64,000 bases of DNA from Thermodesulfovibrionales bacterium (lineage in GTDB: Bacteria > Nitrospirota > Thermodesulfovibrionia > Thermodesulfovibrionales > SM23-35): the NCBI GenBank assembly GCA_963727725.1, contig CAVSHJ010000005.1:92246-156245 (forward strand). The letters are read 5' to 3'. Of this stretch, positions 1-3,406 are shown one piece after another. The number at the start of each line of letters is the position of its first letter. Within the stretch, counting starts at the first letter, position 1. The position numbers were made by a program, and so were the translations under genes. The notes below the pieces were generated by a model that saw only the letters and a program-made list of their open reading frames with translations, made no database searches and was not told the origin of the DNA.

Positions 1-1662
1 GAAGTCACCATAAAGGGGAGCGTCATAACCGGAGAGTTGAAGGACGGCAAGAAATTTAAAACATATGCAGCGGAATACCCTGACCTCGTAAAAACCTTAA
101 GGGCCGAGAATGTAAAGATCACCGTCAAGCCTGAAGATCAGAATCCATGGTACTGGAACCTCTTTTTCTCATACGGCCCCATAATCTTACTTATCGTTCT
201 TTGGATATTCTTCATGCGCCAGATGCAAACGGGCGGCAACAAGGCGTTGTCTTTTGGTAAGGCAAGGGCAAAACTGGTCTCTGAAAAGACAGTCAAGGTA
301 ACCTTTGCCGATGTCGCGGGGATAGAGGAGGCAAAAGCAGAAGTCCAGGAGATTATAGATTTTTTGAAGGACCCCCAGAAATTCCAGAAGCTTGGCGGGA
401 AGATCCCCAAGGGCGTGCTTCTGGTAGGCGCGCCCGGTACGGGTAAAACCCTTCTCGCAAGGGCCATTGCCGGTGAGGCGGGAGTGCCGTTCTTCTCTAT
501 CTCAGGCTCTGACTTTGTCGAGATGTTTGTGGGAGTCGGCGCATCGAGGGTAAGGGACCTTTTTGATCAGGCAAAGAAGAGCGCTCCCTGCATAATATTT
601 ATCGATGAGATAGACGCGGTCGGGCGGCACAGGGGCGCAGGTCTGGGCGGCGGCCATGATGAACGCGAGCAGACCCTGAACCAGCTCCTCGTTGAAATGG
701 ACGGGTTCGAAGCCAATCAGGGGGTCATCATCATCGCAGCTACTAACAGGCCGGACGTCCTCGACCCGGCACTTTTAAGGCCGGGAAGGTTCGACAGACA
801 GGTGGTCGTACCCCAGCCCGATGTGAAGGGAAGGCTGGAGATACTCAAGGTTCACACAAAGAATATCCCTCTTGATGAAAATGTCAGCCTTGACGAGATC
901 GCGCGGGGCACACCCGGTTTCTCCGGCGCAGACCTTGAGAACCTTGTGAATGAGGCGGCCCTGCTCGCGGCAAGAACCGGAAAAAGCAAGGTCGAAAGGT
1001 CCGATTTCGAGTCGGCAAAGGACAAAGTGCTTATGGGCGTGGAGAGAAAGAGCATGATAATCAGCGATACCGAGAAAAAGAACACTGCTTATCATGAGGC
1101 GGGCCATACTCTTGTCGCAAAGCTGACGCCGGCGACTGACCCGGTCCACAAAGTCAGCATCATCCCGAGAGGGAGGGCACTCGGGGTTACGCAGCAATTG
1201 CCGATAGACGACAGGTATACCTATTCCAGAGACTATCTGATGAATGCCCTCACAGTTCTGCTCGGAGGCAGGGCTGCGGAGGAGATCGCATTGAACCACA
1301 TGACTACGGGTGCCGGCAATGATATCGAGAGGGCGACAGAGCTTGCAAGGAAAATGGTCACGGAGTGGGGCATGTCGGAAAAACTGGGGCCGCTTGCCTT
1401 TGGTAAGAAGGAGGAACAGATATTTCTCGGAAGGGAAATAGCCCAGCACAAAGACTATAGTGAAAAAACCGCGGTCGAGATAGATGAAGAAGTCAAGAAG
1501 ATAGTAATCGAGGCTTATGACACAGCCAGGAATCTCCTTACGGAAAACCGTGACCTGCTTGAGACATTGGCAAAGACACTCCTTGAGAAGGAGACCATGG
1601 ATGGGGCAGAGATAGATGCACTCATCCGGGAAGTGGAGTCAAAAAGGGCAGTCCGGGCTTGA
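1..1662 (+). CDS. ftsH: ATP-dependent zinc metalloprotease FtsH (5' end cut by window edge)
   Basis: Frame is open from nt 1, so the track start at 37 is not the real start. TM segment [22 protein letters not shown], Walker [14 protein letters not shown] zinc site. Confidence 0.97.
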
Positions 1663-2543
1663 AACTTTCCTGGTCAAACTTCTCGTTAGATTTTTCCGAA
1701 AAAACTTATGTCATGGGAATCCTTAATGTTACACCGGATTCCTTTTCTGACGGCGGCCTCCACCTTGAGAAATCCGCAGCGATCAGGCGTGCTTTGCAGA
1801 TGCTTGAGGAGGGCGCCGATATTATCGATATCGGAGGCGAATCAACAAGACCTGGTTCGGAGCCTGTTGCCGTCGAAGAAGAGCTAAGGCGGACGATACC
1901 TGTTATTGAGGCGCTCGCAAAGGAGATTTCTGTTCCGCTTTCGATCGACACCTGCAAGTCGGAAGTGGCTAAGATAGCACTTGACGCGGGGGCTTCGATA
2001 GTTAACGACATAAGCGGATTGAGATGCGACCCGCAAATGGCGAAGGTTGTTTCAGAGCAAAAGGTTCCTGTCGTGATTATGCATATTAAGGGTGCACCGA
2101 GGGATATGCAGAAAAACCCTGTTTATGAAGCGTTAATGCCGGAGATAATGGATTATCTGAGAGGTGGTATAAGATTGGCGCTGGAGTCCGGGGTCCCGGA
2201 AGACAGGATAATAATTGATCCGGGTATAGGTTTTGGCAAGACATCGGAGCACAACCTGGAAATAATCCATGACCTTTATGAATTCACCTTATTGGAAAAG
2301 CCGCTTCTCATAGGCCCGTCGAGAAAGGCCTTCACAGGCAGGGTCCTCGGAGGTGTGCCGCCTGAAGAGCGTCTTGAAGGCACGGCGGCAGCGGTCGCCA
2401 TTTCGATAATGAATGGTGCAAATATTGTCCGTGTCCATGACGTGAAGGAGATGGTTAAGGTAGCAAGAGTTGCGGATGCGATAAAGAGAATGAAAATACG
2501 TAATGAAGAAATGAAAGAAAGGCATAGAGGTCTTTCCATATGA
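1659..2543 (+). CDS. folP: Dihydropteroate synthase
   Basis: [15 protein letters not shown] motif with an N-terminus laid out like E. coli FolP. The TTG start overlaps the ftsH stop. Classic ftsH-folP synteny. Confidence 0.95.
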
Positions 2544-2950
2544 AACTTCTCCTCTTTTATGCGCATAAATGGTGGTTCAAGACCGCTTCAAAAAGCCTTC
2601 CGCAGGCGCCTGATATCGACATGGAAGACTCCGTGGAAAATACCGTCGTGGTCTTCTTCCATGCGGAAAAGGATGATGAGGAAAAAGGCAAAGGTCTTCT
2701 CGACAAACTGGTCAAGAACATCAAGTGGCTTGCGGGCAAGTTCAGTACAAGAAATGTAGTTATCCATTCGTTTAATCATCTTTCATCGAGCAAGGCGTCT
2801 CCTGAATTTTCAGAACAGACTCTAAAACGGGCTGCGGAACGGCTGCAGAATACGGGCTATACGGTGATGTGCACGCCTTTCGGGTACTTCAATGAATTTA
2901 TGATCCACGTGGGAGGAGAAAGCCTCGCAAAGGTTTTCAAAGAGTTGTAA
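2540..2950 (+). CDS. Stand-alone protein resembling the archaeal threonyl-tRNA synthetase N-terminal editing domain (DTD-like fold)
   Basis: 136 aa. Blocks [38 protein letters not shown] and PFGYFNEFMIHVGGESLAKVF line up with my memory of the Pyrococcus ThrRS N-terminal domain ([60 protein letters not shown]). ATGA overlap with the folP stop. Confidence 0.6.
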   Translation: MKLLLFYAHKWWFKTASKSLPQAPDIDMEDSVENTVVVFFHAEKDDEEKGKGLLDKLVKNIKWLAGKFSTRNVVIHSFNHLSSSKASPEFSEQTLKRAAERLQNTGYTVMCTPFGYFNEFMIHVGGESLAKVFKEL

Positions 2951-3406
2951 TCAGGTGAGACTTTTCATGAACTTCAAGGCAGCAGAATTTATACAGTGAC
3001 GCAGGCCGGTCGGAGGCGGCCCGTCATCAAAAACATGGCCGAGGTGGGCATCACACCTTGCACATATGACCTCGGTCCTCTTCATAAAAAAAGACCGGTC
3101 GGTATGAGTTCTTATATTGTTTTCCGATACGGGTTCCAGGAAGCTTGGCCAGCCCGTCCCCGAATCATATTTTGCGGCTGAACTGAAGAGATCCGTACCG
3201 CAGCATACGCATTGATAAATGCCTTTTTCCTTACGGTCATGGTATTTGCCGGTGAAAGCCCTTTCGGTGCCTTTTCTCCGCGTAACCTGATATTGCTCGG
3301 GCGTAAGGAGATTCTTCCATTCTTCGTCAGTTTTAATTACCCTGTCCACTTCCTCCATAATCCCCTTGACAGCAACAAATATTTTAATCTTCTCGCGACT
3401 CTCCAT
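2951..3406 (-). CDS. msrB: Peptide-methionine (R)-S-oxide reductase MsrB
   Basis: CVCCG...CARC zinc cysteines, GWPSF, catalytic RHCINS. The true start may be the ATG at 3358 ([14 protein letters not shown]). Confidence 0.93.

Follow-up and report, generated by a model that had tools for sequence, protein, structure and literature searches.

This report concerns a small gene near the start of a 64,000-nucleotide stretch of DNA (the window), positions 92,246 to 156,245 of contig CAVSHJ010000005.1 in the GenBank assembly GCA_963727725.1 of a Thermodesulfovibrionales bacterium (Nitrospirota), an affiliation borne out by the names given to near-identical proteins; the assembly is a metagenome-assembled genome and 85% complete. 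The gene product, a 136-residue protein (the query in the comparisons below), is a genuine free-standing relative of the editing domain that archaeal threonyl-tRNA synthetase (ThrRS) carries at its N-terminus. The following features lie at the locus.

1 to 1662, plus strand: 3' part of what we take to be ftsH, running off the start of the window and forming the first gene of a co-directional ftsH-folP-editing-domain string; named from the AAA and HEAGH-type protease motifs in the translation.
1659 to 2543, plus strand: folP (dihydropteroate synthase), TTG start; Pfam Pterin_bind, E 1.6e-87.
2527 to 2530, plus strand: GAGG, a putative Shine-Dalgarno-like element read from the sequence, within the 3' end of folP and 9 nt before the ATG of the editing-domain gene.
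2540 to 2950, plus strand: free-standing tRNA-Thr_ED gene (DTD-like fold), 136 amino acids, ATG start, of the standalone clade with Lys or Arg at residue 131; open reading frame, Pfam PF08915 match and AlphaFold2 model.
2951 to 3406, minus strand: msrB (SelR domain), convergent to the editing-domain gene; Pfam SelR, E 1.3e-54.

The ATG of the editing-domain gene (2540-2542) overlaps the TGA of folP (2541-2543), read as ccatATGAaac, and the stop of ftsH is likewise overlapped by the TTG start of folP, read as cTTGAaac (TTGA). A separate gene joined to folP by an ATGA overlap, with folP in turn overlapping ftsH, is what the original prediction had described, and all of this holds. Translational coupling or co-expression with folP through the ATGA overlap is plausible. 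At the other end, the TAA of the editing-domain gene (2948-2950) abuts the stop of the minus-strand msrB (2951-2953) with no intergenic base, so that terminators, if any, lie inside coding sequence.

For the Pfam family tRNA-Thr_ED (PF08915), whose cut-off is 30.2 bits, the query scores 145 (E 2e-42), its residues 1-135 covering profile positions 1-136 of 137, and a profile search of the genome agreed. Its nearest solved proteins by phmmer are the ThrRS editing domains of M. jannaschii (2.7e-14), P. abyssi (2e-13) and A. pernix (5e-7), so the likeness goes well past what chance would give. This homology had first been proposed from four sequence blocks set against Pyrococcus strings; all four blocks are present in the translation, and those strings agree with the chain of the P. 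abyssi domain (PabNTD) in the phmmer alignment. Matches to NCBIfam models were only partial, to archaeal ThrRS and Ser-tRNA(Thr) hydrolase, and far under the whole-protein cut-offs, as expected for a single domain. The open frame ends no more than five residues past the domain and holds no ThrRS anticodon-binding or catalytic domain. The nearest clusters in the ESM Atlas all belong to PF08915 and are mostly bacterial. A search for RNA data showing expression of the gene listed none.

An AlphaFold2 model built on an alignment of 38 relatives had a predicted local distance difference test score (pLDDT) of 96.8 and a predicted template-modelling score (pTM) of 0.90, and it bears out the DTD-like fold proposed for the protein. 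The best Foldseek matches of the model were the archaeal domains PabNTD, MjNTD and ApNTD, with template-modelling (TM) scores of 0.90-0.95, followed by DTDs with TM of about 0.7; the PabNTD chains aligned with TM 0.93-0.95, a root-mean-square deviation of 1.4-1.6 Å and E about 3e-15. A two-copy model predicts a homodimer, with an ipSAE of 0.89 against 0.00 for the best control. Among proteins of solved structure, 20 of 30 known as pairs came up to that mark, as did 1 of 23 known as single chains. Contacts agreed between runs to at least 97%, partner pLDDT was at least 93, and in the predicted dimer Lys131 of each copy is in contact with residues 78 and 80 (His80) of its partner. As dimers of the archaeal N-terminal domain (NTD) have already been solved, the pass may reflect memory of those structures and is a sign of likeness, not independent proof.

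Genes of this kind are patchily distributed in the order and widespread beyond it. PF08915 was over its cut-off in 22 of 61 Thermodesulfovibrionales genomes (the window's genome and 60 relatives), in every case in an open frame of 136-213 residues, with one such gene in the window's genome. One order genome (G012, contig C20, 11552-11680) holds a 22-bit N-terminal fragment, covering profile positions 1-44 and carrying a TAG stop, which has the look of a degenerating copy, in keeping with the patchy pattern. A word-indexed protein search returned 1609 relatives of 74-238 residues, and an exhaustive search of 50%-identity representatives gave 549 at E <= 0.001; the representative search also contained ThrRS-type fused proteins of 329-637 residues, all of them of the other of the two classes distinguished below. 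No fused relative came up at E <= 0.001 in a search for longer proteins, a negative that the tool itself flags as weak.

In species-representative genomes from many bacterial and archaeal phyla, a genome scan with the pattern [IV][VLI]LHSFAHL[SGA], drawn from a 19-sequence alignment, located a close motif variant in at least 597 genomes (597 of at least 600 stretches were confirmed by tblastn), a lower bound because the pattern requires Ala at position 79 and so misses the Asn79 type of the window. By record title, the best 80 of these loci split into 27 archaeal and 53 bacterial ones, a sample that is not free of bias, since it was ranked by likeness to one archaeal-type query; the assertion that the domain is chiefly archaeal is thus untrue of the free-standing form. 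Represented on the archaeal side are Methanosarcinales, Methanomicrobiales, Bathyarchaeia, Asgard groups, Hadarchaeota and Altiarchaeota, and on the bacterial side Bacteroidota, Ignavibacteriota, KSB1, Cloacimonadota, Thermotogota, Binatota, Bipolaricaulota, Desulfobacterales, Planctomycetota, Patescibacteria, Atribacterota and others. Four of five archaeal genomes checked, all methanogens, have a ThrRS-fused domain (open frames of 610-654 residues) together with one or two free-standing copies; the fifth, a 1.2-Mb Bathyarchaeota chromosome, showed the free-standing domain only. In a Methanosphaerula genome (G063, contig C1) two free-standing copies, at 883980-884387 and 894749-895153 (L100 and L104), lie about 10 kb apart in addition to the ThrRS-fused domain, and one of them may be the SepCysS-associated type with a Cys-rich tail of Mukai et al. 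2017.

To compare the free-standing proteins with the ThrRS-type domains, the 150 best representatives were sorted by motif, and 47 full-length free-standing sequences (query included) were aligned with 20 of ThrRS type; according to the phmmer alignment, Pyrococcus numbering equals query numbering plus 3 from residue 30 on. Common to both classes, in query numbering, are M1, L4, E43, D46, H80, L81, L102, P113 and G115. The segments H-L-S and P-F-G on the A76 and ester side of the pocket are kept (SFNHLSS and TPFGY in the query), with H80, L81, P113 and G115 present in at least 80% of both classes. Ten residues, namely H7, A79, S82, L85, Y117, K118, H127, P128, L129 and E131, are invariant in the ThrRS type only. 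Invariant or nearly so in the free-standing class only are H76, S77, W63 (46 of 47) and K67 (44 of 47), and the Y-P-Y that precedes the His in the ThrRS type is replaced by H-S-F.

Several of these changes fall at the reaction centre. In the accessible text of Ahmad et al. 2015 (PMC4491819), the PabNTD residues within 6 Å of the scissile bond are given as Pro80, Phe81, Ala82, His83, Tyr120, Lys121 and Glu134 of the other monomer; their query counterparts are S77, F78, N79, H80, F117, N118 and K131'. Thus Tyr120, Lys121 and the cross-subunit Glu134', present in 20 of 20 ThrRS-type sequences, have become Phe117, Asn118 and Lys131, and Pro80 and Ala82 have become Ser77 and Asn79. Among the 47 free-standing sequences, position 117 is most often F (18), S (12) or L (4), and position 118 is L (17), C (10) or N (8). 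Position 131 is K in 26 and R in 19, so that the charge of Glu134' is reversed in 45 of 47. As judged from this alignment, the pocket keeps its adenosine side, has a remodelled acyl side and carries the opposite charge at the cross-subunit position.

The pattern was followed over 92 free-standing loci, 12 of them from the order Thermodesulfovibrionales. The residues at 79/117/118/131 are A/F/L/R in 36 loci, A/F/L/K in 14, N/F/N/K in 11 and A/F/N/K in 10. N/F/N/K is found in 11 of the 12 order loci and N/F/H/K in the twelfth, indicating a pocket that is conserved within a lineage and differs between lineages. In a quick IQ-TREE analysis of 112 rows by 136 columns, which are few columns for so many rows, the 92 free-standing sequences were split from the 20 ThrRS-type rows by a branch with SH-aLRT 99, and the 12 order sequences formed one clade with support 95.

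We also surveyed the other editing systems of the genome and its relatives. The thrS gene of the window's genome (L002, 1141-2919; G000, contig C34) encodes a 592-residue product with tRNA_SAD (N2), class II core and anticodon-binding domains, and the usual bacterial N2 editing domain, whose presence the original prediction had left to be checked, is therefore in place. Segments HxxxH and DLCRGPH, the putative catalytic motifs of the N2 editing site, lie inside the tRNA_SAD match. The N2 segment was found in 59 of the 61 order genomes, whether or not they carry the editing-domain gene, the two misses being assemblies 73% and 81% complete. Compensation for a non-editing ThrRS is accordingly rejected as an explanation of the gene. 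As a separate observation, this thrS has no N-terminal TGS domain, and the only TGS match of the genome lies in a 721-residue open frame elsewhere. The thrS open frames are mostly of 583-632 residues in the same family, while in other families of the order roughly two thirds are of 631-669 residues and the rest of 578-594, and loss of N1/TGS thus looks widespread in the window's own family.

DTD (PF02580) and DTD2 (PF04414) were not found in the window's 85%-complete genome. Across the order, DTD is present in 49 of 61 genomes, comprising 17 of 22 with the editing-domain gene and 32 of 39 without it; the two are hence not complementary. SepRS (TIGR00470) and SepCysS (TIGR02539) were over their cut-offs in none of the 61. 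The 42 tRNA genes called in the window's genome include three for tRNA(Thr), three for tRNA(Gly) and one for tRNA(Cys), every one of which has U73. A tRNA-Sec gene was also called (anticodon TCA, G73), so the organism probably uses selenocysteine. Coexistence with an N2-bearing ThrRS, with DTD in the relatives and with the cis domains of methanogens makes simple editing of Ser-tRNA(Thr) or of D-aminoacyl-tRNA an unlikely function.

The gene neighbourhood turned out to be variable. The gene had been placed inside a core housekeeping operon, and the overlaps that suggested this are real at this locus; the arrangement itself is not conserved. Only 4 of the 12 order loci have folP directly upstream, with a 4-nt overlap in L001, L009 and L013 and a 2-nt gap in L011. 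In another 3 of the 12 (L007, L008 and L010, in genomes G027, G034 and G025) the upstream gene encodes an ADP-ribosylglycohydrolase (PF03747, E 5e-65), and the same 4-nt start/stop overlap is visible there. The upstream gene of the remaining order loci is neither of the two, and their settings differ. The editing-domain gene seems to attach repeatedly to the 3' ends of unrelated genes. When the genes within four of the editing-domain gene were clustered by blastp over the 92 loci, no cluster occurred in more than 8, and msrB adjacency was absent among the recurrent neighbours. The ftsH-folP position is therefore a local arrangement, the folP linkage appears to be an accident of lineage, and the unconserved setting says little on function. 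Conserved neighbourhood was accordingly set aside as uninformative about function. In five loci (L050, L075, L079, L085 and L088, from Bacteroidota, Cloacimonadota and Fermentibacteria) a same-strand downstream gene of about 244 residues recurs, directly downstream in four and as the third gene downstream in one. From its GAGISxxSGIPxFRG segment it is presumably a Sir2-type NAD-dependent deacylase.

Taken together, these results lead us to think, with moderate confidence, that the editing-domain protein is a trans-acting acyl-tRNA hydrolase with a specificity other than Ser-tRNA(Thr). A homodimeric single-domain protein of DTD-like fold, from a clade in which Lys or Arg replaces the cross-subunit Glu of the ThrRS editing domains, would take up the CCA-3' terminus of an acylated tRNA between the conserved H-L-S and P-F-G segments that build its pocket, and the ester would be hydrolysed by the RNA-assisted chemistry known for the DTD-like fold. 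The rebuilding on the acyl-binding side makes L-Ser-tRNA(Thr) an improbable substrate; likelier is one whose acyl group favours, or can cope with, a pocket that is cationic and polar, for which an alpha-hydroxyacyl, an N-blocked or an anionic moiety would be candidates. On sequence grounds we infer that binding of an acylated CCA end persists, though not of a seryl ester in the archaeal manner; its hydrolase activity, tRNA substrate and acyl specificity are likewise putative. The earlier suggestion of a trans-acting proofreading factor thus survives as the best reading in its general form, and the Ser-tRNA(Thr) activity that it implied has become doubtful, given the retained N2 domain and the replacement of Tyr120, Lys121 and Glu134'.

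Several points weigh against this reading. The suggested acyl classes come from reasoning about charge and not from evidence; no activity study of any member of the Lys/Arg clade was found in the literature (subscription journals aside); and the absence of a recurrent neighbour means that there is no functional lead from gene context. K121M was inactive in the P. abyssi and A. pernix domains, in which the Lys positions the catalytic water (Ahmad et al. 2015, accessible text), so that with Asn at this site, and with the variability of the clade there, it is far from certain that the protein would catalyse as the NTD does. The Y120A and E134A mutants in the same text were active and still Ser-specific, and side-chain changes alone therefore do not prove a changed specificity.

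We regard as unlikely a back-up role in trans-editing of L-Ser-tRNA(Thr), which would be useful if the Cys-dependent N2 site of ThrRS were inactivated, for instance by oxidants. The nearest solved relatives are Ser-tRNA(Thr) editing domains; each of the three tRNA(Thr) has U73, the discriminator that the archaeal domain is said to need in the accessible parts of Mukai et al. 2022 and of a 2024 review; Ser/Thr discrimination does not require Tyr120 or Glu134 (Ahmad et al. 2015); editing by E. coli ThrRS needs an oxidisable Cys (PMC4041444, as far as its accessible text goes); and the gene abuts msrB, an oxidative-repair gene. Against this, the genome's thrS and those of nearly all relatives keep N2 irrespective of the editing-domain gene, methanogens with cis editing still hold free-standing copies, Lys121, the site of the inactive mutant K121M, is Asn here, Glu134' is charge-reversed in nearly all free-standing representatives, and msrB is not a recurrent neighbour.

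Equally improbable, in our view, is a protein that has lost hydrolase activity and does something else, for example holds the 3' ends of tRNAs or a nucleotide ligand, or serves in regulation. In its favour, Lys121, the one residue whose mutation abolished activity in the accessible text of Ahmad et al. 2015, is not conserved in the clade, and the new clade-specific invariants H76, S77, W63 and K67 hint at a new constraint. However, the A76-pocket segments are kept in both classes, the dimer interface and the cross-subunit geometry are retained in the model, and catalysis in the DTD-like fold is credited to the 2'-OH of the tRNA and not to side chains in the accessible text of both PMC4491819 and PMC5802732.

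Still less probable is a chiral or glycine proofreader, a deacylase of D-aminoacyl-tRNA or Gly-tRNA(Ala) that replaces DTD. The fold is shared with DTD, and neither DTD nor DTD2 was found in the genome; but the assembly is incomplete, DTD went undetected in 5 of 22 carriers against 7 of 39 non-carriers, and the query gives no match to Pfam Tyr_Deacylase at E up to 1 and has no Gly-Pro dipeptide in its 136 residues, so that the cross-subunit Gly-cisPro motif of DTD is absent. Replacement of DTD was rejected on its presence in 17 of 22 carriers and 32 of 39 non-carriers.

Editing of Ser-tRNA(Cys) on the phosphoserine route to Cys-tRNA(Cys), as for the tRNA-Thr-ED encoded beside clade VII SepCysS or fused to some bacterial SepRS, is a very remote prospect and was rejected for the order: such associations include a SepRS fusion in a Nitrospirae metagenome-assembled genome (accessible parts of Mukai et al. 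2017 and 2022) and the tRNA(Cys) has U73, but neither enzyme is over its cut-off in any order genome, no SepCysS-like neighbour recurs in the 92 loci, and the SepCysS-associated and SepRS-fused forms are described as closest to the ThrRS domains and as keeping the Ser motif (Text S1 of Mukai et al. 2017; section 3.2.2 of Mukai et al. 2022), whereas the query belongs to the Lys/Arg clade.

The hydrolase of altered specificity fits what has been proposed for the family. The free-standing tRNA-Thr-ED was defined by Mukai et al. 2017 (mBio, PMC5424206), with 'a wide distribution among prokaryotes'. According to their Text S1, the aminoacyl-adenosine-binding residues are conserved save that at M. 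jannaschii Glu135, and hydrolysis of aminoacyl- or hydroxyacyl-tRNA is proposed. In the accessible part of their Fig. S4 the groups are marked as 'archaea Lys', 'bacteria Arg' and 'archaea/bacteria Arg', and its tree includes Nitrospira bacterium SG8_35 proteins, sulfate reducers, Marinilabiliales, bacteria of the candidate phyla radiation, Methanosarcinales and Thorarchaeota. The query resembles this standalone Lys/Arg-135 group in being a single domain of about 136 residues with Lys at the M. jannaschii Glu135 position (K131) and in clustering with the bacterial and archaeal free-standing clade; NCBI names such proteins 'threonyl-tRNA synthetase editing domain-containing protein'. It differs in the pocket N79/F117/N118/K131 of its Thermodesulfovibrionales subclade, in place of the commonest A/F/L/R (36 of 92 loci), and in the position of its gene in an ftsH-folP string, seen in part of one family; otherwise nothing fundamental sets it apart. 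The gene is thus one more member of a family recognised by Pfam and NCBI and described bioinformatically in 2017. New here are a table of the residues that mark each class, the finding that Lys121 is lost along with Glu134, the lineage-specific pocket combinations, the coexistence with N2, DTD and cis NTDs, and the lack of a conserved neighbourhood.

With the archaeal ThrRS domain the query shares the Pfam family, the fold (TM 0.90-0.95), the predicted homodimer and conserved E43, D46, H80-L81, P113 and G115. In contrast to that domain it is unfused, has Phe, Asn and Lys for Tyr120, Lys121 and Glu134' and H-S-F for Y-P-Y before the His, and coexists with an N2-bearing ThrRS, so that it would not be the cell's only Ser-tRNA(Thr) editing site. 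The accessible text of Kuncha et al. 2018 (PMC5802732) and of the 2024 review counts DTD, the archaeal NTD and the animal DTD paralog ATD within the DTD-like fold, and no bacterial NTD-like protein is mentioned in these portions of the two; the term 'tRNA-Thr-ED' was met in no more than two papers, each of them bioinformatic (subscription journals aside). The query has the fold of DTD and ATD and their free-standing, dimeric, trans-acting architecture (PMC5802732, accessible text). Its resemblance to DTD is structural only, however, with TM of about 0.7, 9-13% identity and no Pfam match; the SQFTL and NXGPVT (Gly-Pro) motifs that mark DTD in that text are missing, and the query's family coexists with DTD in relatives.

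We would also raise, more tentatively than the reading for this protein itself, the possibility that the free-standing clade with Lys or Arg at residue 131 makes up a functional class of its own within the DTD-like fold, the fourth after DTD, the ThrRS NTD and ATD. Its members would be trans hydrolases of mis-acylated tRNA handled by no known editing factor (for instance alpha-hydroxyacyl-, N-modified or anionic acyl-tRNA), retained by hundreds of species of bacteria and archaea in parallel with canonical editing. The interest lies in the family and not in this copy, which adds its own pocket variant and an incidental linkage to folP. The Lys/Arg clade is conserved and widespread (one motif variant reaches at least 597 species genomes), and it occurs alongside every canonical system of Thr/Ser and chiral proofreading; the identity of its substrate would add a new step of translation quality control or a new kind of aberrant acyl-tRNA.

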